A stretch of 64,000 nt of DNA from assembly GCA_016705245.1 (NCBI GenBank), contig JADIYM010000003.1, positions 420,148 through 484,147 on the forward strand, given 5' to 3'. Both the position numbers and the translations under genes were made by a program. The notes under the pieces are model-generated. The model was not told where the DNA came from, made no database searches, and was given only the letters and a program-made list of their open reading frames with translations. Of the stretch, positions 3,740 to 60,055 are shown piece after piece. The stretch's first letter is position 1, and every line of letters begins with the position of its first letter. This DNA is from Blastocatellia bacterium (GTDB lineage Bacteria; Acidobacteriota; Blastocatellia; UBA7656; JADIYM01).

Positions 3740-3832
3740 GCCCAGAACCCCGGAGCGTAGCGAGGGGCCGACGTACGACCCAAGTCGCGTGGAGATCACA
3801 GTCGGCCCCTCGCTACGCTCGGGGTTCTGGGT
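3740..3832. terminator. Bidirectional terminator-like hairpin between convergent TonB paralog and hisS (31-32-bp perfect arms, 28-nt loop)
   Basis: GCCCAGAACCCCGGAGCGTAGCGAGGGGCCGAC ... GTCGGCCCCTCGCTACGCTCGGGGTTCTGGG. Confidence 0.6.
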
Positions 3833-9855: not shown

Positions 9856-11357
9856 CTAGTCGCCCTTCGCGAAGACGAAGAACCACACGGCGAACCCCGC
9901 CACCGTCAGCAACGCGAGCAGGATGAAGATCACTCCGAGCCCGATGAGGACCTTGCTTCCGGCCGACTTTCCGGCCTTTTTCGGAGGCTCCATGTCGAGC
10001 GCAGCTGTCGGCGGAATCGGCATCGTCGGGGCTGGCGCGGGCACCGCAACTGGAGGTGGCGAAGCCGGCGCTGCCGCCTGCGGCGCCGGCTGCGGCGGCA
10101 AGGGAGGCGCCGCAACTTGCGGGGCCTGCACTGGTGCTGGCGGCGGCGCGACGGGCATCGACGAAAGCGGGACGGTCGCCTGGTGAGAAGCAGGATCCCC
10201 CGAGGCAAGCGGCGCCGTCGGCATGCCAGCGGCGATATCGTGCATGGCCGGCGGGACGACCACATCGGGCGCGTTTGACGGCGCCGACGGTGCGGGCTGC
10301 TGCAGCCGCGGGATCGCGACGTGGGTCACGGGAATGTCCGAATGCGCCGGTCCCGTCCCGGGTTGGGTTGCGATGAGCTGCATTCCGAGGTTGTCGAGAA
10401 CCCCGTTGACGCTCGGCGGTCCCTGCGCGGCATTCGCCGCCGTGTCCTGGTAATAGTCGAGCTGCTGTCCACCGATGCGCAGCAGGTCGTTCGACGTCAG
10501 CGCGTGCATGCTGCCCGTGATCGAGAACTGTTCGGCCGAGCTCTGGAGTGAAGACCCGTCAAACTGCGCTATGAGCGCCGTGATGTTGTCTTCTCCGCCC
10601 CGGGCGTTCGCAAGCTCGATGAGCCGCCGGCACGCGGCCGCCAGATCCGGCACGTTCTGGACGATCGCGTCGCGCATTTCGTCCGCCGATACCTTGTTCG
10701 ACAATCCGTCCGAGCAAAGCAGCATCGCATCGCCGGCGCACAGGTCTACCGAGGTGACCGCGACGACGACGTCAGGCCGCGTGCCGAGCGCCTGCAGGAT
10801 AACGTTGTTCGGAACCTGATTCGCCTGATCCGGCTGAATCGCCTTTGCGTCGACGAGGAGCTGGACGAGCGACTGGTCCTTGGTGAGTTGCTTGATTCGA
10901 CCGGCGCGCACGAGGTAGGCGCGCGAGTCGCCAACCTGCCCGACGTAGGCCTTGCTGCCGTGGCACAACACCGCCGTCAGCGTGGCGCCCATTCCGGCGA
11001 GGTGCGGATTGTCCTGAGCGTATTGCCAGACCGTGCGATTCGTCCGTTCGACCGCGATCTGCAATCGCTGCGAGACGTCGAGCGGCGTCGAGCCAGGCTT
11101 GAGCATCTCGTCGCGCACGCCGTTGACCGCCAGGTCGCTGGCGATCTCGCCGGCGACCGCGCCGCCCATGCCGTCCGACACGACCATCAGGCTTCCCATC
11201 GAGCCAAGACGGTGGTGGCTCACTTCCGGTGTCAGCCCGGTGTTGCCGGTCGTCAGATCCGCCACGAGAAACAGTCTTCGTTTCCTCGCCGGATCATGCC
11301 GACATCGGTCCGCGCAGAGACGCGGACCTGGACGTCGCCGTTTTGCGACGCGCTCAC
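9856..11357 (-). CDS. PP2C-family Ser/Thr protein phosphatase with Pro-rich linker and C-terminal TM anchor; apparent frameshift near 11270
   Basis: Conserved N-terminus RTDVGMIRRGNEDCF lies in a different frame (11268-11357, GTG start at 11355-11357) from the body (DGMGGAVAGEIAS...). The frame change falls at a plus-strand AAA run at 11269-11271. C-terminal PPPAP repeats plus VLIGLGVIFILLALLTVAGFAVWFFVF. Confidence 0.8.
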
Positions 11358-20371: not shown

Positions 20372-20765
20372 GCAACGAACGGAGACCAGTGCGCGGACGG
20401 CCGCCGGGAGTCGAACCCGGAGCGCAAGCAACGGGCCAACTTCCCCGTCCGCGCATGTCCGTAAGACCAGACGCCGGACGATCAATCACGTCACGCGCTC
20501 GGAATCGCACCGTTTCCCGGCCGCAATGGCTATCCCCGGCCATTCCCACCGTCCCGTCCTTCCCGAACATCCCGACCATCGGCACATCCTCGCTCCACGA
20601 CCCCCCGGCAGGTGCCGGGGCCAGCCCTTCAGCGCGTCCAGATTCAGCCGTGTCGTCCGTGGTGTTTCGTCCGCCGCCGCAATCAACTCTTGATGTCTAC
20701 TCCCTGCCCCGTCAAACTGGAGACTCGCGAGGTCAAACGGTATAGCGATAGAGACTCTGGTCGGC

Positions 20766-32715: not shown

Positions 32716-33975
32716 TCAGCAGGCGAGCATCTGGCGGTCGAGGTCGATGCCCTCGATGTCGCCCAATGCGGCCAACGCAAAGGCGTCGGCGTGGAAGATG
32801 TCGTTAGCCACGCGCGTGACGTCGTCGCACGTGACCGCATCGATGGCCTTCAGGACCTCGTCGACTGGAATCTGCCGGCCAAAGACCATCTCGTGACGCG
32901 CCAGCCGCGACATTCGATTGAACGTCGACTCGAGCGACAGAACCGTCGCAACCTTGTATTGCTCCTTTGCGAACCGGAGCTCATCCTCGGTGGGGCCGTC
33001 GCGCTTGATGGCGCCGACCTCCTCCATGATTAGCTCAACTACCTCCGGCAGGTTCTCGGGAGAAGCTCCAGCGCCGATGGCGTGAACGCCAGTATCCAGA
33101 AACGCATCGACCGACGAGTAGATTCCGTACACGAGCCCGCGCTCCTCGCGAATGCGCTGGAAGAGCCGCGAGCTCATGCCATCGCCGAGAATCGCGCTCA
33201 TCAGATTCGCCGCGTAGCGGTCCGGCGAGGTCACGACCGGACACGGCGTGCCGAGGACGAGGTGCGCCTGCTCGAGCTCAGGCTTCGAGCGAAGGACGAA
33301 AGCCGGCGCCGTCCGCGGCGCGGTCAGGTCGGCCGCGACCTGATGCTGCGCGAGCCGTCCGAGTGCCGGGGCGAACGCAGCCACCACCGCCTCGTGATCG
33401 AGGTTGCCGGCAGCTGCGACGATCATTCCGTCCGCGCGGTAGCGGCCGGCGTGATAGTCGACGAGGTCGTCGCGCCGCAGGCTCGCGACCGTGTCGAGTG
33501 TGCCCGCGACGGGCCGTCCGAAAGCGTGGTCCGGCCAGAAGTGCTCGGCGAAGATGTCGTGCATGAGCTCGTCCGGCGTGTCCTCGACCATCTTGATCTC
33601 TTCGAGGATGACCTGACGCTCACGCTCGATCTCGTCGACGAGAAACGCGGGGTCGGTCAGCATGTCGGCGATGAGGTCGATTGCCTGTCCGAGTTGCTCA
33701 TCGAGCACGCGCGTATAGACGCACGTCGTTTCCTGACCGGTCGAGGCGTTGAGGTTGCCGCCCTGGCGATCGCCTTCGATTGCGATCTCCTTGGCCGTCC
33801 GGCGCGATGTCCCTTTGAAGATCGCGTGTTCGATGAAGTGCGAGATGCCGTTCAGAGCCGCGGGCTCGTGGCGCGAACCGGTCTCGATCCACACGCCGAC
33901 ACTCGCGGACCGGACGTGCGGCATTCGTTCGGTGACGATGCGGACTCCGTTGTCGAGGCGAGTTGCTTGGATCAT
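32716..33975 (-). CDS. M16 family zinc peptidase (insulinase/pitrilysin-like)
   Basis: Inverted zinc motif HFIEHAIFKGT (HxxEH) plus downstream E; 419 aa. Confidence 0.85.
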   Translation of the reverse strand: MIQATRLDNGVRIVTERMPHVRSASVGVWIETGSRHEPAALNGISHFIEHAIFKGTSRRTAKEIAIEGDRQGGNLNASTGQETTCVYTRVLDEQLGQAIDLIADMLTDPAFLVDEIERERQVILEEIKMVEDTPDELMHDIFAEHFWPDHAFGRPVAGTLDTVASLRRDDLVDYHAGRYRADGMIVAAAGNLDHEAVVAAFAPALGRLAQHQVAADLTAPRTAPAFVLRSKPELEQAHLVLGTPCPVVTSPDRYAANLMSAILGDGMSSRLFQRIREERGLVYGIYSSVDAFLDTGVHAIGAGASPENLPEVVELIMEEVGAIKRDGPTEDELRFAKEQYKVATVLSLESTFNRMSRLARHEMVFGRQIPVDEVLKAIDAVTCDDVTRVANDIFHADAFALAALGDIEGIDLDRQMLAC

Positions 33976-44821: not shown

Positions 44822-44896
44822 GCGCAAAGGCGCAAAGTACACCGGATTCACCGGCTATTTCACACCTGCAATTTTTGCCCTTTGCGCCTTTGCGCG
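44822..44896. repeat. Family-A palindromic repeat copy A5
   Basis: GCGCAAAGGCGCAAAG ... CTTTGCGCCTTTGCGCG, same arms as A1 with a different loop. Confidence 0.8.
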
Positions 44897-47245: not shown

Positions 47246-48304
47246 ATGGCTTTCGACTTCATGCGTGTCAACGGGATGCGTTTTCGGTCACGACCCTGCT
47301 GCAACCTCAAGCGGCAGAGTGGCGTATCACGATTCGTGCCGCGCAATCTCATTGCAGTGCTGGTTCTGGCCGGACTGATGTGGACGGCGCCGGGCGAACC
47401 ACGCGCGGCGGCGCGATTACCGCTGCAGGACGACGAGATCGTTCGGCTCGAATCCGACCTCGTCACGGTCGACGTTGCGGCCACCAATGCCAGGGGTGAG
47501 CCGGTCACGGATCTCAAACTCCACGAAATACGCCTATTCGAGGACGGCGCCGCCCGGTCGATCGACTTCTTCGCTTCGGCAGCCCTACCGGACGTGTCAC
47601 GCCCCCTGGCCGTCGTCATAGCTCTCGATACGTCCGGGAGCATAACGCGCGACGAACTCGAGATTCAGCGGCGCGCGGCCCTGCAGTTCGCGGACCTCGT
47701 TCGGCCAGAGTCACTGTTCGCGGTCGTGGCCTACAACCACGAGGTTAAGGTCCTCCAGAAATTCACCGCCGAGAAGCGCGATATCAGCAAGGCGTTCGAC
47801 AAGATCAAGGATGTCGGCGGCGCGACGCGAATCTTCGACGCGCTCGACCAGTCGGTGTCGATGCTCGCAAAAACACCGTCGACTCGCAGTGGACGCAAGA
47901 TGCGTCGCATAGTCGTCACCATCACGGATGGAATCGACAGTTCGAGCACGATCAACTCGATTGAGCTCATCCGTCGGGCGGTAGCCGCAAATGCGACGAT
48001 CTACTCGATTACCCTGCCGTCCTACATCCAGGCGCTCGACGGAACCCGGCGACGGGCTCTCACGATCCTGGATGCTCACGGCATCGTCCCGGCAACGGGC
48101 GGCGTGGATTTCTCGGCGGACGGCGATGACTACGCCCCATTCTTCAAGGCCATTGCCGGCGACGCCGCCGGTGGCTACCAGGTCGCTTTCTACCCGTCGG
48201 ACGCGGCTAAACGCGACGGGAAGCCGCACGCGGTTCGGATCGAGGTCACGCGCCCCGGGGTTCAGCTTCGCTCGAGTCGACAGAGCTACGAGATATTGCG
48301 CTGA
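47246..48304 (+). CDS. von Willebrand factor type A (VWA) domain protein with signal peptide
   Basis: MIDAS DTSGS; LIAVLVLAGLMWTAPGEP signal-like segment; start ambiguous among ATGs at 47246, 47261 and 47276. Confidence 0.7.
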   Translation: MAFDFMRVNGMRFRSRPCCNLKRQSGVSRFVPRNLIAVLVLAGLMWTAPGEPRAAARLPLQDDEIVRLESDLVTVDVAATNARGEPVTDLKLHEIRLFEDGAARSIDFFASAALPDVSRPLAVVIALDTSGSITRDELEIQRRAALQFADLVRPESLFAVVAYNHEVKVLQKFTAEKRDISKAFDKIKDVGGATRIFDALDQSVSMLAKTPSTRSGRKMRRIVVTITDGIDSSSTINSIELIRRAVAANATIYSITLPSYIQALDGTRRRALTILDAHGIVPATGGVDFSADGDDYAPFFKAIAGDAAGGYQVAFYPSDAAKRDGKPHAVRIEVTRPGVQLRSSRQSYEILR

Positions 48305-48355
48305 TCGGCACGTCGCCGCGTGCATTCCGGTGTGCACCTGTGCTCGAATTGCCGA

Positions 48356-49606
48356 ATGCGAGCAACACCCGGCACGATGGCCATTCTCGTTGGCGGGGGA
48401 CCCGCCCCAGGCATCAACTCTGTCATTGCGGCCACCGCAATCGAGGCAATCAACGCGGGGTTTACGGTACTCGGCGTTCAGGACGGCTTCAAGTGGCTCG
48501 TCAGGCGTGATCCGTCGCAAATGCGGAAGCTGGGCATTCCGGACGTCTCGAGAATTCACCTCGCGGGCGGCTCGGTCCTCGGGACCTCGCGCGAAAATCC
48601 GACGAAGTCGCCGGAGCGACTCGATGCGGCTGTCGAGACTCTTCTCGGCGCGGGCGTCACACACCTCGTCACGATAGGCGGTGACGACACGGCGCTCTCA
48701 TCGAGCTCAGTGGCCGCGCACTCGGGCGGTCGCATTCGCGCGGCGCACGTCCCGAAGACGATCGACAACGATCTGCCGCTCCCACCTCACATTCCCACGT
48801 TCGGCTTCCAGACGGCCCGGCACGTCGGCGTCGAGCTCGTGCAGAACCTGATGGAGGATGCCCGGTCCACGGGACGGTGGTACGTCGTTGTTGCGATGGG
48901 TCGAAAGGCGGGACACCTCGCGCTCGGCATCGGAAAAGCCGCTGGCGCGACGCTGACGATCATCGGAGAGGAATTCGGGCGCGACGTCGTCCCCTTCGCT
49001 GAGTTCTGCGACATCGTCGAGGGCTCGATCATCAAGAGGCGCGCTGCTGGCCGGAACCACGGTGTCGCCGTGCTCGCCGAAGGGCTGATCGAAAAACTCG
49101 ATCCGGCCGAACTCGAAGGCCTGCAGGATGTCGAGCGCGACGACCACGGCCACGTGCGTTTCGCCGAGGTCGATCTGGCGCGGCGCGTCAAGGTAGAGGT
49201 ACAGGGCCGTTTCCTCGACCGCGGAGTCAGGGTGAACATCTCGGCAAAGACCATCGGGTACGAGCTCAGGTGCGCGCCGCCGATTCCGTTCGACGCCGAA
49301 TACTGCCGCGATCTCGGATTCGCGGCAGTGAGATACCTTCTGTCCGGAGAGAGCAATGCCATGGTCAGCATTCAGGGCGGCAAGCTCGTTCCGCTGCCCT
49401 TTTCGGCGATCCGCGATCCCGAGACCGGAAAGACGCGCGTTCGACTCGTCGACACGTCGAGCTCGGGCTACCGCGTCGCTCGCGAATACATGATCCGACT
49501 CGACGAAAGCGACTTTGAGCGAACAGATCGGATTGCACGGCTCGCGGCGGCGGCTCGAATGGAGCCCGACGCATTCGTTGCCCGATTCGGATACCTGGGA
49601 CGGTGA
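48356..49606 (+). CDS. 6-phosphofructokinase family, pyrophosphate-dependent type by motif (GGDD, PKTIDND)
   Basis: GGGPAPGIN, GGDDT (Asp replaces the Gly of ATP-PFK GGDGS), PKTIDNDL (Lys replaces Gly), MGR. Confidence 0.8.
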   Translation: MRATPGTMAILVGGGPAPGINSVIAATAIEAINAGFTVLGVQDGFKWLVRRDPSQMRKLGIPDVSRIHLAGGSVLGTSRENPTKSPERLDAAVETLLGAGVTHLVTIGGDDTALSSSSVAAHSGGRIRAAHVPKTIDNDLPLPPHIPTFGFQTARHVGVELVQNLMEDARSTGRWYVVVAMGRKAGHLALGIGKAAGATLTIIGEEFGRDVVPFAEFCDIVEGSIIKRRAAGRNHGVAVLAEGLIEKLDPAELEGLQDVERDDHGHVRFAEVDLARRVKVEVQGRFLDRGVRVNISAKTIGYELRCAPPIPFDAEYCRDLGFAAVRYLLSGESNAMVSIQGGKLVPLPFSAIRDPETGKTRVRLVDTSSSGYRVAREYMIRLDESDFERTDRIARLAAAARMEPDAFVARFGYLGR

Positions 49607-49611
49607 TATCA

Positions 49612-50850
49612 ATGCGACTCGAACGAATCGGGGTCCTCGTTGGAGGAGGACCGGCGCCTGGCACGAACGGAGTGATTGCAGCGGTTGCCATCGAGGGAAT
49701 AAACCGCGGCTGCTCGGTTCTCGGCCTCCACAACGGGTTCGAATGGCTGGCCCAGCATTTCACGGACGAACAACACGAGCTTTCGATCGCAGAAGTCTCG
49801 CGAATCCACTTGCGGGGCGGAACGATCCTCGGCACGTCGCGCATCGATGCGGCGCAGGACGAGCGGTCCCTCGAGAACACGGTGCTCGCGCTGCAGAAGC
49901 TTCGCGTCGAGGCGCTTGTTGCCATTGGCGGCGACGACGTTCTGCGAAGCGCCGCGGCCCTCGAGCGGGCGTCGAACGGCGCCATCCGCGTCGCGTTCGT
50001 TCCGAAGACGATCGATAACGACGTCTGGCTGCCGCTCCCGATTCCGACACTCGGCTATGAAACCGCGCGGCACGTCGGGGTCCGGATGATCCAGAACCTC
50101 ATGGAGGATGCCAAGACGACGGGCCGATGGTACATCGCCGTCACCATGGGCCGGCCGACGGGTCATCTGACGTTAGGGATTGGCAAGGCCGCAGGCGCGA
50201 CGGTGACGATCATCCCGGAGGAGTTTGGCACCCGCGACGTGTCGCTCGATGACATCGCCGACATTCTCGAGGGATCCGTGATCAAGCGACGCGCGAGCGG
50301 GCGCGACTTTGGCGTTGCCGTCCTCTCTGAGTCGCTCGCCGAGCGAATGCGCAGCGACGAGGTCGCGGAGCTCGCCGATGTCGATCGGGACGCCCAGGGC
50401 AATATCCGGGTCACTGAGATCGACCTCGGGCGGAAGGTGAAGAACGCCGTCCAGTCGCGGCTCGAGCGCCGGGGAATTTCGACCACGATCGTCGACAAGA
50501 CCATCGGCTACGAGTTGCGCTGCGCTGCACCTATACCGTTCGACGCCGAATACGCGAGGGATCTTGGTTACGCGGCGGTCACGCACCTGCTCGACGGGGG
50601 TACGGGAGCCATTGTGATCCTGCAGGGAGGTGAGTTCCATCCGGTGCCCTTCGCCGACGCGCTCGATCCGGTGACCGGCCGCGGACGGATGCGGTACGTC
50701 GACATCGACACGGAGGGCTACAGGGTAGCTCGCGAGTACATGGTGCGAGTTGAACCCGAAGACTTCGAGGATCCGGAGCAGGTGTCGAAACTCGCGTCGG
50801 CCGGGGCGATGACGGTGGAGGAGTTCACCGCGCGGTTCTCGGCTCAGTGA
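49612..50850 (+). CDS. 6-phosphofructokinase family paralog in tandem, also PPi-type by motif
   Basis: MRLERIGVLVGGGPAPGTNGVI, GGDDV, PKTIDNDV, TMGR. Confidence 0.8.
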   Translation: MRLERIGVLVGGGPAPGTNGVIAAVAIEGINRGCSVLGLHNGFEWLAQHFTDEQHELSIAEVSRIHLRGGTILGTSRIDAAQDERSLENTVLALQKLRVEALVAIGGDDVLRSAAALERASNGAIRVAFVPKTIDNDVWLPLPIPTLGYETARHVGVRMIQNLMEDAKTTGRWYIAVTMGRPTGHLTLGIGKAAGATVTIIPEEFGTRDVSLDDIADILEGSVIKRRASGRDFGVAVLSESLAERMRSDEVAELADVDRDAQGNIRVTEIDLGRKVKNAVQSRLERRGISTTIVDKTIGYELRCAAPIPFDAEYARDLGYAAVTHLLDGGTGAIVILQGGEFHPVPFADALDPVTGRGRMRYVDIDTEGYRVAREYMVRVEPEDFEDPEQVSKLASAGAMTVEEFTARFSAQ

Positions 50851-51094: not shown

Positions 51095-51586
51095 CTAGCC
51101 CTGCGGAGGCTTCGGCGCGGGAGGCGCGGGAGGCTTCGGCTGTCCACCGCCACCGTCCGCCTTCGGGGCTGCGGGCGCAGTTCCCTGAACGGGACTCGTA
51201 CCTGGAGTCTTCTTCGGCTCTTCGCCGACCTCGAGCACGCAGTCGCCGAACGTCACCCGAAGCGCCGCTGCTTCGGCCACGGGCTTCACCTCGAGCGTCT
51301 TCGTCCGAATGATCGTGTTGTTGCTTACCCGACCGGAGAGCAGAACGCTTTCGGCTTCGACTTCCCCGGCGATTTCGCCCTCCGAGGTGATCTGCCCGAC
51401 GCGCATCTTGCCGAACACCGCGCCGCCGGTCGCGACGGTCAACGACGGAGCGTGGACCTCGCCCTCGACGCGGCCGCTCACGGCCACGGGGCATTTCGAA
51501 ACGATCGAGCCCTTGAACTCAGTCCCTTCTTCGACAAGGGTCTTCTTGACGCTCGCTGCTGCTTCAGCTTTCTTCGGATCCGCCAT
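51095..51586 (-). CDS. bactofilin family cytoskeletal protein with C-terminal Pro-rich tail
   Basis: Repetitive beta-helical core GSIVSKCPVAVSGRVEGEVHAPSLTVATGGAVFGKMRVGQITSEGEIAGEVEAESVLLSGRVSN; tail PKPPAPPAPKPPQG. Confidence 0.8.
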   Translation of the reverse strand: MADPKKAEAAASVKKTLVEEGTEFKGSIVSKCPVAVSGRVEGEVHAPSLTVATGGAVFGKMRVGQITSEGEIAGEVEAESVLLSGRVSNNTIIRTKTLEVKPVAEAAALRVTFGDCVLEVGEEPKKTPGTSPVQGTAPAAPKADGGGGQPKPPAPPAPKPPQG

Positions 51587-51613
51587 GCCGGCTCCCTCCT
51601 CTTTCGGTGTGCG

Positions 51614-52880
51614 TTACCGGTGATTGTTGGCGTGCAGGATTCGCATCCGCAGCTTGCAGCCGGGCTCGAACGCGAAATGCGTCGACTGATCCGGCTGCTG
51701 CACAACTCCAACGACCGATCCGTGCGAACTGACGACCAGCCGCTTCGGTCCGACGATGCCCGGGCTCGCACCTTCGAAAAACTGTCCGTGGATCGTGATG
51801 TTCCCACCACCGGTGATCTGGCAGTCGACGAGGACGCCATCCTGCCCGACGACGAGTTCCGCGCCTTCACCAAGAGCGATCGAACACTGCTCGAAGCGGC
51901 TTTCGATCTCGACGTACGCCGACTGACCGAACTCGAGGTTCGCGTTTCGAAGCACGTCACCCTTTCCGAAGTAGCGCTTGATCCGGTCATCACCGCCACT
52001 GGCGGTCGCCGCGGCGACCGCTGCAGCCGCTGCCGCCTTGCCCGACAGCACCGCCGCAATCTGATCACCCGTAACCCGGACCGATCCGTCGCCGTCAGCG
52101 CTGTTGTCGACCCACTCGGCAATAACGCCTTCGACATCGCCGCCACCTGCCTCGATGCCGAACACCTTCGCGCCGGTCAGGATCGCGCCTGCGAGGCGTG
52201 TCCCGGAAATGGACGCCCGTCGAAGGTCGGCGCCCGTCAGGTCGGCTCGCGTGAGATCCGCCTTCGAGAGATCCGTCTTCGAAAGGTCAGCACCGGCGAG
52301 CTTGGCGCCGCGGCCGACGACGCCCGAGAGATTCGCGTCGGCAAGGATGGCCCCCGTCAGGTCCGCCTCCTCGATGTTCGCGCGCTCCACGTTCGAGCTC
52401 GTCAGGTTGATCTTCGACATCTTCGCGCCGCTCAGGTCGCACTCGACGAGGTCGGCATACGAAGCATCGGCGTCGCTCAGATCGGCTCCACCAAGCTTGG
52501 CTTCATCGATCTGGGCATACATGAGGTGCGCTCCGGAGAGGTTCGCACCTTCGAGATTGGCGCCCTCGAGGTTGGCGCGATTGAGTTTCGCGCCGGCCAG
52601 GATGGCCATCTCGAGGTTGGCTTCCTCGAGGTCGGCCTTCTCGAGGTTGGCTCCCGTCAGGTCCGCGCCAAGCATCTTAGGCCTCCCCCATGCTCGCGTT
52701 CGCCAGATTCGCCCCCTTGAGTTTCGCCTCCTCGAAGTTAACGCCTTCGAGATCCGTGCGACGGAGGTTCGCGCCTTCGAGGTTTGCCTTCGAAAGGTCG
52801 ACGCCCGAAAGGTCGGCACGTTCGAGGCTTTCGCCCTTCTGGACTTTCTCCAGAACTTCTTCTCTAGTGAAATCTGCCAT
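51614..52880 (-). CDS. pentapeptide-repeat protein (~420 aa), apparent frameshift near 52686
   Basis: More than 30 A(D/N)L(S/T)GA pentapeptide units. N-terminal 67 aa (from 52880, SD GGGGAGG upstream) are in a different frame from the body; the junction is at a C5/G5 run at 52686-52690. Confidence 0.75.
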
Positions 52881-52930
52881 TGGAGTCGCTTACCTCCCCA
52901 GAAACTTTGGTCGCTACGTCTGGCGAATGC

Positions 52931-54348
52931 TTACAGCGGGATGTTCTCGGCGCCGCCTTCAACGAGGAAGGATGCGAGCCGGTCGATTCGGCGTTCAAAC
53001 GGGAGCTTCTCGATCTCGTGGATCAGGTCGACCTCGCCAAGTTGCGCAAGGACGACATTGATCTGCAGCAGCGTATCCTGCCGCGCCTGCCGAAGCCGCT
53101 TCTTTTCTTCCGCGGCTTCTTCCGTCCAACCGTTCGACGCACGCTCGTAGCCCTCTTGCTGGGCCTTGAGGTCGCCGATGAGCGTCGCAAGCTTCGCCCG
53201 TTCGGCCGTGCGGTTCGCATCGGGCGCCACCGACTGGATCTCGGCGCGATAGCCCTGGAACTTCTCAACAATCTTCGCACCCAGCCAGTCGGGGATTCCC
53301 GCCGTTGCGGCGAGGTCCTCGGCCTTTGCCAGGAAGAACACTTCAAGCGTCGTGAGGCCGGCGGCATACAGCTTGTCGACCGTGACCTTTCGAACGTCGG
53401 ATACCTGCATGAGCAGCGAGTGGATGATGATCGACTCGCGCTGGTCGCGCTCGGCGTCGAGCGTGAAGGCCTGCGGCATCAGCTCGATGAGCGTGTCGTA
53501 GGTCGAAATCAATTCTTCGCGAATCTCGCCCGTGATCATGCGTCCTTCGCTGTTCGACGCGAGCTCGAGAATGGCGTCGAAATCCTCGACGGCGCGATAA
53601 ACGTCCTGCAGCTCCATCTTCTCGGCGGCGCGCTTGATCGACAGCACGGCCGGCTGGCAGATGTCGATCCACTCCTTGACCGTATCGCCCCGGTTGATCT
53701 CGATCATGAAGTTGCGGACGGCACGAACGTAATTCGCGGCGATGTCGGCAAACAGATCGCGGATCGGCGCCTGGTCCACAACGACTCCGTGTGAGGAGGC
53801 GTCACCGACGGGAGCGGACTGGCCGCCGCCGGTCGCACCGGCAATCGCGGCGTCGAAGTTCGAGTCGAAATCTCCGAGCAAGTCATCGAGGTCGTCGAGG
53901 AAGCCCTCCCCGAGGTCGCCGCCACCGAGCGGAGCCGTTGCAGGTGCGGGCGTGGGCAAAGGAGCTGAAGCCATTCCCTGAGGAGCCGACGGAGGAGACG
54001 GCGTGAAGGGACTCTGCAGCGGAACCGTCATCTGGTTGATGTTCGGATCGAAAGGCTGCGTCGTAGTGGCCGAGGGCGGAGCCGCCTTGGCTGTTGTTTC
54101 AGCAGAGGAACCAAGCGGAGCGGTAGCGGTTCCCGGTTTGGCGGCCGAGAGGTCCGCGGGAACCGATGTCTTGATGGTCGCGAAGTCCGGAGCGGGCTTT
54201 GGCGGCGACTGAACTGGAGGCGGAGGTGGCGCCGGTTTCGGAGCTGGCGGCGCGGGTTTTGGGGTTTCGCGCTGAACAGGCTGCGCGGGTCGAGGCGGCT
54301 CAGGTTCTTCTTTCTTTTACGTCCGAAGAGTCGCGAGAGAAAGCTCAT
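52931..54348 (-). CDS. hypothetical protein: N-terminal MSFLSRLFGRKRKK, long Pro/Ala-rich linker, C-terminal domain with helix-hairpin-helix-like segment; apparent frameshift near 54306
   Basis: The start ORF (54348) and the Pro-rich frame join if one A is added to the A4 run at 54306-54309. C-terminus LYAAGLTTLEVFFLAKAEDLAATAGIPDWLGAKIVEKFQGY; operonic with pentapeptide and bactofilin genes. Confidence 0.6.
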
Positions 54349-56488: not shown

Positions 56489-58414
56489 ATGAACGTCGTT
56501 GTTCAGTCGACCCTGTTCGGTTTCGCGATCCTCGTGTTCTCAGTCGTGGTCGGATGGATCGTGCCGTCGCTCTACCTGATTCGCGAATCCGAAGTCGGTC
56601 TCGTCGAAAAAAAGGTCCTCGGCGGATCCCTTCCCGCGGGCCGCGTCGTCGCGGCCGACGGTGAGCAGGGACTGCAGGCCCGCACCCTCGCGCCCGGACT
56701 GCACTTCATGCCGAAACCGTTCTTCAAGGTGTGGCGGATTCCGCTCACGCGTGTGCCCCAGGGATTCATCGCCCTCATCACGGCGATCGACGGCGCACCG
56801 CTGCACATCGGCCAGCTGCTGGCGCGAACCGTCGATGGGCACCATAACTTCCAGGACGGCGTGGCCTTCCTGAGCCGCGGCGGTCAGAAAGGCGCCCAGG
56901 TCGGAATCCTGACGCCTGGCCAGTACCGGATAAACACGCGGCTCTTCGAGGTCGACATCGCCGCGGCGATCGAGGTCCCGGAGGGACGCATCGCCACGGT
57001 CACGGCGATCGACGGTGCGCCGCTTCCGATGGGTCAGCTTCTCGGTCGGGCGACGGCCGGCCACAGCAGTTTTCAGGATGCGGAAGCGTTTCTCGCCGGC
57101 GGAGGCCAGAAGGGACCTCAGGTAGAGATCCTGACGCCCGGCATGTATTACATCAACCCGCGGATGTTTGGCGTGAAGCTGGGCAATGCCGTCAAGGTCC
57201 GTACTGGCGAGATCGGCATCGTTGAAGCATTCGACGGCACCGAACTGCGCACCGAGCAGATTCTCGGCGACTCGCTCCGCGGGCACGACGACTTTCAGTC
57301 CGCCCAGGCATTTCTCGACGCGGGCGGCCAGCGCGGTCCGCAACTCGACATCCTCAAGCCGGGGATGTACATCAATCCCCTGCTTTTCGACGTGACGGTC
57401 CAGGACGCCACGGTGATCAACATCGGCGAGGTCGGCGTCATCCGCTCGAACGTCGGGATCCTGCCTCCGGTCGGTGAGGACGGCCGCACTCCGGATCTCG
57501 TCGACGAGGGGTACCGCGGCGTGCTCAAGACCGTGCTCGAGCCGAACACGTATTACCTGAATCCGATCGCGTACGTCGTGTTCCCTATCTCGACGCTCAA
57601 CATCACGATCGACTGGAGCACCGAGAATCGCGACACGCCGCGTGACTCGGTCACGGTGAAGAGCCGCGACGGATTCTCGTTCCCGGTCGACGTCAAGGTG
57701 GTCATTCGGGTCCTCAAGGAGCACGCGCCCCTCGTGGTCTCGAAGATCGGCTCGATCCAGAACGCCGTCGACCGCGTGATTCACCCGGCGATCGGCGCAA
57801 CGTTCCGCAACAATGCCGAGCGTTGTGACGCGCTCGACTTCCTGAACAACCGCTCGGTGCAGCAGGCGAACGCGAAGGACGTCACGACGGTCATGCTTCG
57901 CGAATACGGCATCGAGACCGTCGACGTGCTCGTCGGCAACGTCGGGATTCCCGAAGAACTGCTCAAGACGCAGACCGACCGCTTCCTCGCAAAGGAGCGC
58001 GAGAAGACCTATCGCGAGCAGAAGACGGCGGAGGACACGCGCCGCGAGCTCGAGAGCGCGACGGCACTCGCCAACCAGCAGAAGAACATCGTTGCGGCGC
58101 ACGCTTCGGTCGAGATCTCGAAGTCGTCCGCGGCTGCGATGGTCGCGGCCGCCGAAGGCGAGGCGCGGCAGATCGAGCTTCGCGCCGACGCGAACAGCGC
58201 GGCGTACCAGAAACTCATTGCCGAGATCGGGCGCGAGGGACTCATCGGCATCGAGATGCTCAAGCTCGTGCGCGATGGCCAGATCAAGATCACGCCCGAG
58301 GTGTATGTCTCAGGCGACAGTGCGGGGCCGATGTCAGCCCTGGCGGCAACGATGCTAGGCGGTCGACGCCAGGAGACCTCGATCCGAACGAGCGATGCGC
58401 CACAAGCCGCGTAA
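56489..58414 (+). CDS. SPFH/band-7 family flotillin-like membrane protein with three N-terminal ~60-aa tandem repeats
   Basis: N-terminal TM; repeats ...AIDGAPL..GQLL(A/G)R...FQD..AFL..GGQ(K/R)GPQ..IL(T/K)PG.Y.IN.; SPFH core; C-terminal Ala/Glu-rich coiled-coil AAAMVAAAEGEARQIELRADANSAAYQ. Confidence 0.7.
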   Translation: MNVVVQSTLFGFAILVFSVVVGWIVPSLYLIRESEVGLVEKKVLGGSLPAGRVVAADGEQGLQARTLAPGLHFMPKPFFKVWRIPLTRVPQGFIALITAIDGAPLHIGQLLARTVDGHHNFQDGVAFLSRGGQKGAQVGILTPGQYRINTRLFEVDIAAAIEVPEGRIATVTAIDGAPLPMGQLLGRATAGHSSFQDAEAFLAGGGQKGPQVEILTPGMYYINPRMFGVKLGNAVKVRTGEIGIVEAFDGTELRTEQILGDSLRGHDDFQSAQAFLDAGGQRGPQLDILKPGMYINPLLFDVTVQDATVINIGEVGVIRSNVGILPPVGEDGRTPDLVDEGYRGVLKTVLEPNTYYLNPIAYVVFPISTLNITIDWSTENRDTPRDSVTVKSRDGFSFPVDVKVVIRVLKEHAPLVVSKIGSIQNAVDRVIHPAIGATFRNNAERCDALDFLNNRSVQQANAKDVTTVMLREYGIETVDVLVGNVGIPEELLKTQTDRFLAKEREKTYREQKTAEDTRRELESATALANQQKNIVAAHASVEISKSSAAAMVAAAEGEARQIELRADANSAAYQKLIAEIGREGLIGIEMLKLVRDGQIKITPEVYVSGDSAGPMSALAATMLGGRRQETSIRTSDAPQAA

Positions 58415-58512: not shown

Positions 58513-60055
58513 ACTGCGTCGCGCCGCAGAATCGGCAGAATCGCAACTGACCCTGCAGCGGGCGCCCGCAGTTCCGGCACTTCATGTGCGCGGGAAGGTC
58601 CGCACCCTGAGTCTGGGCGTATGAGCCGGCCGACGACGGAGGCTTCGAGACCACGGGTGGCTTCGGCGGCGGCGCCTTGACCTTCGAGTCCGACCGGAAC
58701 CCGAACTTCGCGAGCAGTCCTCCGCCCGCACTCTTGCGGATGTCTTCGGTGAGGCGTCTGATCTCGGCATTGATCGGCTCGATGCGCCTCGCCTCGTCGA
58801 GCAGATCTTCGGCCTCCTCATTCTTCCCCGCCTTGTGGTAGAGGCGCGCCAACTCGACGAGCGGCTTGATGCTTCTCGGATTCCGGTCGCTCGCCTGGCG
58901 CAGCACCTTGTCGGCCGATGCCATTCCGCCGGGCCGCTTAGCCAGCACGCGCGCGTACGCGACGAGCGTGTCGATGTCGTTCGGTTTCTGGGACAGCGCC
59001 GACTCGAAGCACTGAACCGCCGCGGCAAAGTTCCCCGCAGCCGCTTCGGATTCCCCCATCTGGATGTACGCGGAAGCCAGCAGCTTCAACCGGCCCGTAT
59101 CGCCCCTCGGCCTGGGGGCGGGATACTGCAACGGCGCCGAGTGGCCTCGCTGTACCGGCGCCGGCGGAACGTATGGCGCCGTCCCGTCGAATTCGCCCAT
59201 CGTGATCGGAGCGCCGGCGTGATCTTCGTCGGACTGCATGCTGGCCGCCATATGGATGGCCGCAGCCGCGGTTTCGGAATCCACGACGAAGCCGCTTTCC
59301 ACGGCTTCCTGCCGCTGCCGGAGCAACCGGTCAGTGTCCGAGACCCGCCGATCGTGGAATGGTTCGATGACCCCGGTCAGCCGCAATGCAACGAGCGCCT
59401 TCAGGACCTCGGCTTCGGGAATGCCGGTGACGATCAGCAGATCCTCGAGCTTTGCCTCGGCCGTGATCTGCGAGGCGACCAGACCGTCGAAGAAGCTCAA
59501 AGGAAGGGTCGTGAGCCGGCCGGTGAAGCCCTCGGCCGGAGCCGTGCACTGCGCAAGCGAGCCGACGAAGCTGCGTATGAGCCCCTCGTTCTCCATCCTG
59601 TGCACCGCCTCGAGGATGAGGTGGCTGACGTCGATGCGAATCGGAAGCGGATGTTCCGCCTGAATTCCACCCGTGAATTTCGCCGTCGCGTCAGACGTGT
59701 CGTATGCGCGGCCGAACACGTCGAAGGCATAGTCGGCCAGCCAGACGCGAACCGTCTCGGCATCGCGGAGGTTCTGTTCGAGCACGAGCGAGACGAGCGA
59801 CTTCTTGCGGGTGACCTCCTTCTCGAGCTGGAAAAGCACGAGCCGCTCGGCGGCGCTCTCGAAGCGGCCGGCGCGCGTGAAGTAGGCGGCGAGGCTCTCT
59901 TCCGGGGCGTCCGACACGACGTACACGAGCTCCCCTTCTTCGAAGAACGCCATGCGGAATCGGCCGTTCACGCTCAGCCGGAGCACGCCGGTTTTTCGAT
60001 GATCCGCGATGTCGTGCAGGGACTCAGAGAGTCCAACGACCGATGATTCGCTCAT
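58511..60055 (-). CDS. DUF4388-like N-terminal domain protein with TPR repeats, Pro-rich segment and C-terminal zinc ribbon
   Basis: Real start MSESSVVGL at 60055; the ORF table over-extends to 60655 through Arg-rich junk. N-terminus GLSESLHDIADHRKTGVLRLSVNGRFRMAFFEEGELVYVVSD; TPRs (AGNFAAAVQCFESALSQKPND...); CRNCGRPL...CRFCGA. Confidence 0.65.
   Translation of the reverse strand: MSESSVVGLSESLHDIADHRKTGVLRLSVNGRFRMAFFEEGELVYVVSDAPEESLAAYFTRAGRFESAAERLVLFQLEKEVTRKKSLVSLVLEQNLRDAETVRVWLADYAFDVFGRAYDTSDATAKFTGGIQAEHPLPIRIDVSHLILEAVHRMENEGLIRSFVGSLAQCTAPAEGFTGRLTTLPLSFFDGLVASQITAEAKLEDLLIVTGIPEAEVLKALVALRLTGVIEPFHDRRVSDTDRLLRQRQEAVESGFVVDSETAAAAIHMAASMQSDEDHAGAPITMGEFDGTAPYVPPAPVQRGHSAPLQYPAPRPRGDTGRLKLLASAYIQMGESEAAAGNFAAAVQCFESALSQKPNDIDTLVAYARVLAKRPGGMASADKVLRQASDRNPRSIKPLVELARLYHKAGKNEEAEDLLDEARRIEPINAEIRRLTEDIRKSAGGGLLAKFGFRSDSKVKAPPPKPPVVSKPPSSAGSYAQTQGADLPAHMKCRNCGRPLQGQLRFCRFCGATQ

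Follow-up and report, generated by a model that had tools for sequence, protein, structure and literature searches.

Three adjacent genes in a 64,000-nucleotide stretch of a Blastocatellia bacterium genome, referred to here as the window, look like a self-contained operon for a heteromeric bactofilin cytoskeletal module that is tethered to the membrane in trans, a reading that we regard as moderately probable. The genes occupy positions 51095-54348, point in the same direction on the minus strand and are separated by spacers of only 50 and 27 nt. A GAGG-type Shine-Dalgarno sequence precedes each of them. They encode, in order, a helix-hairpin-helix (HhH) adaptor, a pentapeptide-repeat protein and a bactofilin:

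52931-54348, minus strand: gene 1, adaptor protein, 472 aa after restoring one base (the repaired protein is P0001)
51614-52880, minus strand: gene 2, pentapeptide repeats and a predicted bactofilin-fold C-terminal domain, 421 aa when intact
51095-51586, minus strand: gene 3, canonical bactofilin (Pfam PF04519), 163 aa, intact open reading frame (ORF)

An earlier note, made from the letters of the window, had described three co-directional minus-strand genes with short gaps, and this layout stands; its lengths of about 470 and 420 aa for genes 1 and 2 were, however, read across two frame changes, and neither gene is a continuous ORF in the window. The note had also held that this is not a described module, and full-text literature searches did not find a description of such a three-gene arrangement.

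Bactofilins are widespread scaffolds. To our knowledge, only a handful of types of bactofilin partner have been recognized (cell-wall enzymes, PadC/ParB, and flagellar or stalk factors), and we know of few functions beyond topoisomerase protection for the very numerous pentapeptide-repeat proteins. The trio offers a definite cellular setting in which a protein of the latter kind can be tested, model-based evidence that the bactofilin fold may reach beyond what Pfam recognizes, and a candidate for the in-trans membrane targeting of a bactofilin that lacks a membrane-targeting sequence (MTS). If the proposal is true, it would provide the first structural cytoskeletal role for a pentapeptide-repeat protein. 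The module can be tested in the cultured Labilithrix luteola DSM 27648, and its three small soluble proteins lend themselves to in vitro work.

Conservation of the Triad

The triad is present in the same order and on the same strand in 42 of the 52 loci that carry a gene-1 homologue. Five more of these loci are cut by contig ends and are consistent with the triad as far as their sequence reaches, and the remaining five have the gene-1 homologue without genes 2 and 3. The carriers, about 40 species, belong to Blastocatellia/Chloracidobacterium (Acidobacteriota) and to Polyangiaceae/Labilithrix (Myxococcota), L. luteola DSM 27648 included. Among 185,579 species representatives, homologues were confined to Polyangia-type genomes and Blastocatellia, and the suborder to which Myxococcus belongs yielded none. 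Starting from three distant bactofilin orthologues, the reciprocal test recovered the same three genes in every case (3/3). When ORFs were clustered across the 52 loci and the window, no other conserved neighbor was common to more than six loci, and the flanks are variable. The co-conservation in related genomes that had earlier been proposed as a check is thus borne out, order and strand being kept in 42/52 loci amid variable flanks.

The spacing across loci is typical of an operon, with median spacers of 36 nt and 10 nt and frequent 4-nt overlaps, and the operon has no internal terminator-like site on its coding strand. One metagenome-assembled genome (MAG) carries three separate copies of the triad (L014, L027, L036). 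Natural fusions, moreover, cover both gene junctions: single ORFs join the pentapeptide domain, the gene-2 C-terminal domain (C-domain) and the bactofilin (P0361, P0413, P0414, P0421), placing the C-domain directly before a full bactofilin, and others join the HhH protein to the pentapeptide domain and C-domain (P0415, P0393). For P0421, two independent assemblies (L064 and L065) give the same sequence.

The notion that common descent or chance alone accounts for the adjacency of genes that are functionally unconnected is exceedingly improbable and was already disfavored, given that the triad is kept across two phyla among unrelated flanks, occurs three times in one MAG, has overlapping stop and start codons and is found as fusion ORFs. 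The earlier claim of a single functional module built by the three genes around a bactofilin is accordingly supported by the 42 loci in two phyla, the tiny spacers and the fusions across both junctions; the further suggestion in the note that it could be a polar or septal complex is speculative. Two minor observations belong here. Some of the fusion ORFs may be artefacts of assembly indels, occurrence in two assemblies being seen only for P0421. PatA_N-domain genes near the triad in two lineages are a probable coincidence, because they are mutually unrelated by BLAST and absent elsewhere.

Frame Lesions in the Window

According to the ORF listing, gene 1 appears in the window as two ORFs, one of 106 aa (54028-54348) and one of 366 aa (52931-54031), and gene 2 as a 67-aa ORF (52677-52880) followed by a 353-aa ORF that starts from an ATG at 52675. 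The lesions responsible were placed by comparison with a contig that is 99.7 % identical (L053) and with six contigs of 99.45-99.6 % identity (L054-L059):

54315-54318, minus strand: frame lesion 1, a run of four A residues that is a run of five in all near-identical contigs, one A being missing
52676-52678, minus strand: frame lesion 2, TAAG where the near-identical contigs read TAC (…ASMGEAYMLGADL…)

The second lesion introduces a TAA stop and moves the frame by +1. Both affected genes are intact, at 472 and 421 aa, in the seven contigs of at least 99.4 % identity (L053-L059), L054-L059 among them for the 421-aa gene 2, and after the one-base repair the gene-1 product matches the database protein P0001 at all of its 472 aa (100 % identity). 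A different repair of gene 2, deletion of a G from a GGGGG run, restores the frame but yields GRPK and not the true GEAY, and was rejected since L053 shows the change to be TAC to TAAG.

The lesions are most likely consensus errors of the window's assembly, because about 13 indels of 1-2 nt, mainly changes in homopolymer length, are private to the window in the roughly 35 kb compared, and unrelated genes are also affected; a PP2C phosphatase gene near 11268, for example, is truncated by one such private indel. Were the lesions real mutations, genes 1 and 2 would be pseudogenes or split genes and the module would be in the course of being lost from this organism. Of eight near-identical sequences, only the window indeed has the two lesions, each of which lies in the early part of its gene, and the second is no pure homopolymer slip, leaving TAAGATG, in which an in-frame ATG comes after a stop. 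The pattern of private indels is nevertheless that of consensus error, and the operon shows few substitutions relative to its relatives, the repaired proteins being identical or nearly identical to intact ones, so that ongoing loss is improbable. Programmed frameshifting or phase variation at the A-run was likewise dismissed, the run being only 4-5 nt long and the same kind of indel occurring in unrelated genes and intergenic DNA. In an assembly with such frequent small, mainly homopolymer indels, oddities at the level of ORFs need to be checked against relatives. For the protein encoded at 32716-33975 of the window, no exact match was found on record.

A Bactofilin without a Membrane-Targeting Sequence

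The product of gene 3 is a bactofilin by a clear margin, matching PF04519 over residues 16-104 (E = 7.3e-13) with a score of 49 bits, where the cut-off is 27.9, and the same Pfam family is assigned to all 120 listed of its 307 homologue clusters (E ≤ 0.001). The core is followed by the Pro-rich tail that the earlier note had reported:

about 51224-51541, minus strand: bactofilin core
51098-51223, minus strand: Pro/Lys-rich bactofilin tail

The N-terminus of this protein, MADPKKAEAAAS (MADPKK…), begins without the hydrophobic residues of an MTS, has a hydrophobic moment of 0.13 and is represented by M[AST]DPK in orthologues. The consensus of the bactofilin MTS is MFSKKKK, and that of BacA (MFSKQAKS) has been experimentally defined (PMC12448750). 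Judged by its sequence, the gene-3 bactofilin lacks an MTS of the MFSKKKK type, an element that is typical for the family and not obligatory.

A Pentapeptide Protein with a Predicted Cryptic Bactofilin-Fold Domain

The second protein was correctly recognized earlier as a pentapeptide-repeat protein: it matches PF00805 with E = 1.2e-65, and its tandem A(D/N)LXX repeats are those of a quadrilateral β-helix. A structure model adds a second, smaller β-helix at its C-terminus:

52160-52880, minus strand: right-handed quadrilateral β-helix of pentapeptide repeats (PF00805), ~240 aa
51635-51979, minus strand: cryptic bactofilin-fold domain, predicted, ~115 aa, a three-faced β-helix of 5-6 windings

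The pentapeptide helix is strongly acidic, with a net charge of -16 and a pI of 4.5 as calculated on a 98 %-identical orthologue (L001); in many orthologues the domain is mildly acidic, at -2 to -6. It is joined to the C-domain by a linker of ~40 aa that is modeled with low confidence and was read as flexible, and the C-domain ends in the motif FxFEPGCxLRM+I.

The C-domain is predicted to have the bactofilin fold on the strength of the structure model. Pfam gives no Bactofilin match to it at E ≤ 10, only a weak match to G8, and HHalign places the probability of a relationship with the operon's own bactofilin family at 1.6-4 %. A profile of the C-domain, run against 1.84 billion representatives, retrieved 179 clusters; the ten that were checked with Pfam were all pentapeptide proteins, none of the ten being a stand-alone bactofilin. 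Small right-handed β-helices may converge on the same fold. With its own C-terminal domain predicted to fold as a bactofilin, the pentapeptide protein would be more than a client of the bactofilin.

It is proposed that the C-domain stacks end-to-end with the bactofilin, either co-polymerizing with it or sitting at filament ends. If the C-domain stacks in this way, the filament would therefore be decorated with rigid, acidic pentapeptide rods, which could serve as a docking surface. A different possibility is that the C-domain caps, nucleates or limits filaments and so regulates their length or position without being part of the lattice. Because FEPGCxLR in the last winding resembles the bactofilin FG[DE]CxLE, only the C-terminal end of the C-domain may suit a bactofilin, and the far divergence of its sequence from bactofilins is as expected if a single stacking interface had been kept; the bulky rod, moreover, lies on the N-terminal side of the domain. 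The rod need not block the N-terminal face, however, given the ~40-aa low-confidence linker, and the fusions that put a full bactofilin directly after the C-domain fit incorporation in tandem, like that of HalA (PMC11459167), at least equally well. A purely capping or length-limiting role is thus unlikely, and co-assembly of the C-domain with the bactofilin is the reading that is carried forward here.

The Adaptor Protein

Gene 1 has at least 139 homologues, all annotated as hypothetical or as HhH-domain proteins. The earlier designation as a Pro-rich HhH protein is right as to the HhH; the protein is better described as an adaptor that combines an MTS-like peptide, a degenerate HPt-like bundle and an HhH:

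54310-54348, minus strand: N-terminal peptide MSFLSRLFGRK(K)K, amphipathic and polybasic, a putative MTS by motif conservation
53795-54309, minus strand: Pro/Ala-rich linker, disordered by composition, ~170 aa (residues ~14-185)
roughly 53831-53911, minus strand: conserved acidic helix in the linker, GFLDDLDDLLGDFDSNFDAA
53480-53770, minus strand: HPt-like four-helix bundle without the phospho-accepting His
53261-53404, minus strand: HhH segment of the Rad51/RadA N-terminal type, by family profile
52949-53209, minus strand: C-terminal long helical hairpins, by AF2 model

The basic N-terminal peptide noted earlier is present, and the motif M[SG][FILV]F[SDT][RK]LF is kept at the N-terminus in orthologues of both phyla; some orthologues (e.g., L023, L028 and L039-L042) have no MTS-like start. 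The peptide has a hydrophobic moment of 0.3-0.5, compared with 0.41 for the MTS of BacA (MFSKQAKS), resembles the bactofilin MTS consensus MFSKKKK and probably binds the membrane. The Pro/Ala-rich linker had been put at ~250 aa; the disordered region is there, at about 170 aa and interrupted by the conserved acidic helix. It is variable in length and aligns poorly across homologues, and its pLDDT is low except in that helix.

The gene-1 model has a pLDDT of 86.7 and contains a CheA-P1-like and a RadA-NTD-like portion; in the region of the C-terminal hairpins, the AF2 helices 240-264, 269-295 and 299-326 exceed a pLDDT of 90. In the bundle, the His of the CheA ALHTLKG sequence (HxxKG motif) aligns with a position that is not conserved and is a Leu in the window's AVLSIKRAA; a single gene-1 orthologue (P0090/L020) has a His there. 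The HhH-like segment that had been noticed in the C-terminal domain is supported by the family profile, which matches the RadA N-terminal domain with E = 1.7e-6 (2bke; E = 0.0066 for 1pzn). Pfam HHH_5 (PF14520) matches the window protein alone only weakly (E = 0.014-0.03, 15-16 bits against a cut-off of 27), and precomputed matches to it are on record for many homologues. The hairpin region carries the conserved motifs RxARxxTLL and LPFE+K. An NCBIfam GltJ match to the Pro-rich region (E = 0.002) reflects low complexity only and was set aside.

The homology of the HhH to the Rad51/RadA N-terminal domain raises the alternative of a scaffold linked to DNA or the nucleoid, in which the HhH would bind DNA while the acidic rod would mimic DNA, as in MfpA/Qnr, and hold or regulate a DNA-binding enzyme on the bactofilin platform, loosely like BacNOP–PadC–ParB. 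Bactofilins of M. xanthus organize chromosome segregation proteins, according to work cited in PMC12448750. The charge calculations, however, led to this idea being downgraded: gene 1 is acidic in its structured part, with a net charge of -16 in L001 and a median of -6 for the orthologues, and about neutral in the HhH segment, which speaks against a simple DNA-binding role for the HhH. The pentapeptide domain is itself only mildly acidic in many orthologues and scores far below the NCBIfam cut-offs for Qnr (penta_rpt_Qnr, 77 bits against 240) and MfpA (mfpA, 57 against 360), outside both families, and genes for ParA, ParB or topoisomerases are absent from the conserved neighbors. A DNA-linked role is, for these reasons, improbable.

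In the preferred reading, that of a membrane-tethered heteromeric filament, the amphipathic polybasic peptide of gene 1 would bind the inner membrane, the ~170-aa disordered linker would bridge the gap to it, and the helical C-terminal part (the His-less HPt-like bundle, the Rad51-type HhH and the hairpins) would attach to the polymer or to a client. Gene content, domain assignments, the conservation in two phyla, the operon-like spacing, the fusion proteins and the predicted folds are results of the analysis; hetero-assembly, tethering in trans and the cellular role are inferences. A fuller picture, in which a hidden family of pentapeptide-fused bactofilin-fold proteins resides in or on the filament, a separate adaptor provides membrane attachment, the degenerate bundle connects the scaffold with a signaling partner, of the response-regulator type or another, and Acidobacteriota (Blastocatellia) and Myxococcota (Polyangia) have shared the module by horizontal exchange, is as a whole possible and is put forward tentatively.

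Relation to Known Systems

Like C. crescentus BacA/BacB–PbpC, H. neptunium BacA–LmdC and H. pylori CcmA–Csd5/7, the triad combines a PF04519 bactofilin and disordered Pro-rich tails with an adjoining second, here predicted, bactofilin-fold protein and an accessory protein, and as in canonical systems the scaffold would be expected to act at the membrane. It differs in that its bactofilin has no MTS, the MTS-like peptide residing on a separate adaptor, and in that Pfam does not recognize the fold of its second bactofilin-like protein, which is fused to a pentapeptide β-helix. Cell-wall enzymes (PBP, M23 peptidase), with which the bactofilin forms a module in BacA–LmdC and BacA–PbpC, are absent among the conserved neighbors and from the flanks annotated for L054-L059 and L067-L071.

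Several features of the individual proteins also set them apart from better-known relatives. The gene-2 protein is about twice as long as MfpA, Qnr, AlbG and EfsQnr, is always encoded with a bactofilin, and has the predicted bactofilin-fold domain where those proteins have a short C-terminal dimerization element. The gene-1 bundle, unlike CheA P1/HPt, is followed by no kinase domain and, with the one exception given above, lacks the phospho-accepting His, and the HhH, unlike that of Rad51/RadA, is followed by no recombinase domain and belongs to a domain that is acidic overall. The M. xanthus BacNOP–PadC–ParAB system resembles the triad in pairing a bactofilin scaffold with a dedicated adaptor, likewise in Myxococcota; PadC differs from the triad's adaptor, which has no ParB-like or ParA-binding domain and is instead made up of the MTS-like peptide and disordered region followed by the HPt-like bundle and the HhH.

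The halofilins of Haloferax volcanii share a divergent bactofilin fold, HalA having tandem bactofilin domains and HalB a transmembrane domain, and AlphaFold models helped to define their architecture (PMC11459167). They are detected by Pfam or by HHpred (89-98 % probability; PMC11459167), whereas the triad's C-domain is not (HHalign below 5 %), and the triad further differs in being bacterial, in having a pentapeptide helix as its fused module and in having a dedicated adaptor gene. The fusions of pentapeptide domain, C-domain and bactofilin (P0421 and others) nonetheless have a tandem layout of two β-helices that recalls HalA.

Layout of the Operon and Lesions in the Window

The minus strand at 51095-54348 holds three coding regions in one direction, with spacers of 50 nt and 27 nt and a GAGG-type ribosome-binding site ahead of each. 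Gene 1 encodes a helix-hairpin-helix (HhH) protein, here called the adaptor, gene 2 a pentapeptide-repeat protein and gene 3 a bactofilin. The genes and domains that the earlier note described here are real, but two of the open reading frames are broken in the window, most likely through assembly error, leaving the bactofilin ORF as the only intact one.

Coding regions and frame lesions of the triad in the window
51095-51586, minus strand: gene 3, bactofilin, 163 aa, intact
51614-52819 from GTG, minus strand: gene 2, part b; the ATG at 52675 makes better biological sense as its start
52677-52880, minus strand: gene 2, part a, a 67-aa ORF of pentapeptide repeats
52931-54031, minus strand: gene 1, part b, a 366-aa ORF in a frame different from that of part a
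54028-54348, minus strand: gene 1, part a, a 106-aa ORF, start MSFLSRLFGRKRKK
near 54315-54318, minus strand: lesion in gene 1, one A of an A5 run missing relative to near-identical contigs
52676-52678, minus strand: lesion in gene 2, TAAG in place of TAC; true sequence …ASMGEAYMLGADL…

In gene 1, the Pro-rich frame has about 90 open codons ahead of the earliest possible start codon, and the pentapeptide register of gene 2 runs on across the break, indicating that the earlier reading had crossed two frame changes. Near-identical contigs from NCBI MAGs, ENA metagenome assemblies and Logan comprise one that is 99.7% identical to the window (L053) and six at 99.45-99.6% (L054-L059). All six encode gene 1 (472 aa) and gene 2 (421 aa) without interruption; in L053, gene 1 is intact and gene 2 is open as far as the contig end. 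A one-base repair of gene 1 yields 100% identity to a database protein (P0001) over 472 aa. About 13 indels of 1-2 nt are private to the window over the ~35 kb compared with these contigs, mostly homopolymer length changes; those private against at least two contigs lie at 3751, 4771, 5103, 11268, 19175, 19546, 19609, 20620-20624, 21581, 55904, 52677 and 54318. The indel near 11268 is just upstream of a PP2C phosphatase ORF (469 aa in the window vs. 500 aa in relatives), and several others fall in intergenic DNA. As this pattern extends to unrelated genes and intergenic DNA, the sequence comparison indicates that the frame changes in genes 1 and 2 are probably assembly consensus errors rather than selective decay of the operon. 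It further suggests that the assembly behind the whole window retains small-indel errors, so that caution is due with the window's other broken ORFs.

Conservation of the Triad

A gene-1 profile, run against 185,579 species with a single genome for each, retrieved 52 loci. When the domains were searched separately by tblastn, the order gene 1, pentapeptide part, C-terminal domain of gene 2 (C-domain) and bactofilin was kept, with strand, in 42/52. Five more are interrupted by contig ends yet are consistent over the part present (L009, L040, L048, L049, L051), and five have a gene-1 homologue without pentapeptide or bactofilin genes (L032, L038, L043, L045, L052). These lone homologues, with the N-terminus MGLFSKLFKSN…, are probably paralogues; the genes next to the one at L045 (8956-10320) resemble FliO/FliP- or SctR-type export-apparatus components. 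L027 also has a second gene-1 paralogue, upstream and in the opposite orientation.

The hosts of the 42 triads form two groups. One is Blastocatellia and Chloracidobacterium, together with some differently titled records that group with these. The other comprises Polyangiaceae and Labilithrix; among its members is the cultured strain Labilithrix luteola DSM 27648 (L023), whose triad lies at about 8.850-8.854 Mb of NZ_CP012333. One MAG carries three separate triads (L014, L027, L036). Clustering of all flanking ORFs found no further gene common to more than six loci, and the triad thus moves as a unit in changing surroundings. A reciprocal start from three distant bactofilin orthologues (49-55% identity) led to the same two upstream genes in 3/3. 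The triad's spacers have medians of 36 nt and 10 nt; stop/start overlaps of 4 nt are frequent, and no terminator-like site was found on the coding strand within the operon. The proposal that the three genes form a conserved module is therefore strongly supported, by the number of loci, the two host groups and the changing flanks. No PBP, M23 peptidase, PadC/ParB or similar known bactofilin client was associated with the triad.

Genes with a PatA_N domain (PF14332) occur near the triad in two separate lineages.

PatA_N genes
window 58514-60016, minus strand
L023, 12477-13730
L046, 10964-12220
L067, 5510-6769
L069, 6465-7760

The window-lineage gene also encodes TPR repeats and lies ~4 kb upstream of the triad; the Labilithrix-type gene comes directly after the bactofilin, with a TetR gene next. 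BLAST shows no similarity between the two PatA_N proteins, and the association does not recur elsewhere; it may be either coincidental or the sign of a fourth partner specific to a lineage.

Single-ORF fusions of triad genes span both junctions.

Natural fusions
Pentapeptide–C-domain–bactofilin: proteins P0361, P0413, P0414, P0421
HhH–pentapeptide–C-domain: proteins P0415, P0393
L064 1695-3488 and L065 160-1953: pentapeptide–C-domain–bactofilin, 597 aa, identical in both assemblies
L066 1058-3574: HhH-adaptor–pentapeptide–C-domain, 838 aa

The same P0421 sequence occurs in one JGI and one Logan contig, downstream of a gene-1 homologue, and in the P0415 contig the bactofilin comes next with a 4-nt overlap. 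Some fusion ORFs may be assembly artefacts; P0421 was assembled twice independently. About 10-15 members retrieved in the C-domain family search are unusually long or C-terminally extended and are candidate fusions.

A Predicted Bactofilin Fold in the Pentapeptide-Repeat Protein

Residues 1 to ~240 of gene 2 are pentapeptide repeats (PF00805, E = 1e-65). This part is strongly acidic (net charge −16, pI 4.5, as measured on L001, a 98%-identical orthologue). Even at E ≤ 10, Pfam matches nothing in the last ~120 residues. An AlphaFold2 model built from 61 sequences (mean pLDDT 90.6, ~95 in the C-domain) consists of the pentapeptide helix, a linker of ~40 residues, part of it modelled with low confidence, and the C-domain, which has three short strands per 19-20 residues. 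The model superposes clearly better on bactofilin structures than on other beta-helix matches. Although the structure search gives no aligned ranges, these matches would belong to the C-domain, because the four-sided 20-residue coil could not superpose so precisely on a three-sided ~18-residue coil. HHalign of the C-domain against the operon's bactofilin family reached a probability of only 1.6-4%. The C-domain resembles the bactofilin superfamily by structure and not by sequence, and since sequence methods are blind to the relationship, it is described here as a predicted bactofilin fold, homology unproven.

The C-domain family is small, with 179 clusters at 50% identity from a profile search of 1.84 billion representatives. 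In full-length members, it typically occupies residues ~257-410 of ~410-425 aa, and all 10 of the longer members examined with Pfam have pentapeptide repeats.

A Bactofilin and Its Candidate Membrane Adaptor

Gene 3 encodes a canonical bactofilin (PF04519, 49 bits vs. a cut-off of 27.9) with a Pro/Lys-rich tail, an ordinary family member apart from its N-terminus. [quoted passage not shown] The N-terminus of gene 3, MADPKK…, kept as M[AST]DPK in orthologues, is without the hydrophobic character of such an MTS (hydrophobic moment 0.13 vs. 0.41 for the BacA MTS). Myxococcota members of the subfamily (L011, L021, L023, L026, L029, L039, L041, L046 and others) have in common a short motif in the tail, (K)SVPPP or SVRPP and then …NG near the C-terminus, possibly a partner-binding linear motif; Acidobacteriota members have PKPP or KGKKGQ-type tails instead.

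The more than 139 homologues of gene 1 are all annotated as hypothetical or HhH-domain proteins. The N-terminal peptide of the family, M[SG][FILV]F[SDT][RK]LF and then basic residues, is conserved, occurs in both phyla and equals the BacA MTS in amphipathicity. There follows a Pro/Ala-rich region of variable length (~170 aa in the window), ending in a conserved acidic helix (F..LL.D.D..F.A). The C-terminal ~290-aa domain is all-helical (modelled with pLDDT 86.7) and combines, in this order, a fold similar to the CheA-P1-like phosphotransfer bundle (HPt) but without its defining His, an HhH homologous by family profile (E = 1.7e-6) to the N-terminal domain of Rad51/RadA, and long helical hairpins. 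One Myxococcota orthologue (P0090, L020) has a His exactly at the CheA phospho-His position (PSVHAIKSAAE vs. ALHTLKGMAG), absent from all other adaptor orthologues examined; it may be left over from an ancestor with a functional HPt. The account of the two partner proteins is thus refined, gene 2 having a C-domain of predicted bactofilin fold and gene 1 being an adaptor with an MTS-like peptide.

The HhH and the acidic rod might suggest a nucleoid-linked role, in which the HhH would bind DNA and the rod act as a DNA mimic. The structured part of gene 1 is, however, acidic, with a net charge of −16 in L001 and a median of −6 over the orthologues; its HhH segment is about neutral, and DNA binding is therefore not favoured on sequence grounds. 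Moreover, gene 2, a genuine pentapeptide-repeat protein, is outside the Qnr/MfpA family, whose models fail on it, and conserved Par or topoisomerase neighbours are absent, making this role distinctly improbable.

Proposed Heteromeric Module

Domain content, conservation, operon-like layout, fusions and predicted folds, all directly supported, are consistent with a heteromeric bactofilin module, a picture that we favour with modest confidence. In it, the C-domain would stack on the bactofilin through beta-helix ends, the mode of bactofilin polymerisation and of the arrangement of two bactofilin subdomains in the archaeal HalA chain (PMC11459167). In BacA and TtBac, a Phe (F130 and F105, respectively) is critical for polymerisation. 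The proposed stacking would yield a filament that is heteromeric, or else capped or nucleated, and bears rigid acidic pentapeptide rods. That gene 2 caps or regulates filaments with no co-polymerisation is a serious alternative, though an unlikely one. Within the favoured heteromeric module, the adaptor is the best candidate for attaching the bactofilin to the membrane in trans, as the bactofilin is without an MTS and the adaptor has, on a long and flexible linker, a peptide that resembles one. Contacts with the polymer or with a client would be made by the adaptor's HPt-like/HhH/hairpin domain. Full-text literature searches on bactofilins and the module's other features found no description of the triad. 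Such a module, argued here from prediction and comparative genomics only, would come as a surprise to both the bactofilin and the pentapeptide fields.

Other Features of the Window

A 641-aa Band_7 (flotillin-like) protein is encoded at 56489-58414 (plus strand), with three ~70-aa internal repeats in its N-terminal half (…IDGAPL..GQLL…F(Q/S)D..AFL..GGQ+G.Q..IL.PG.Y…); its gene has a private in-frame 3-nt deletion at 57370. Near-identical strains differ at 44829-44881 and 17287 in the number of copies of an 8-nt unit, CGCAAAGG (reverse complement CCTTTGCG); 47373-47425 aligns poorly with L054 only. Tandem paralogous phosphofructokinase genes (PF00365) at 48320-49606 and 49603-50850 (plus strand), overlapping by 4 nt, converge on the bactofilin gene and are kept in the near-identical contigs.
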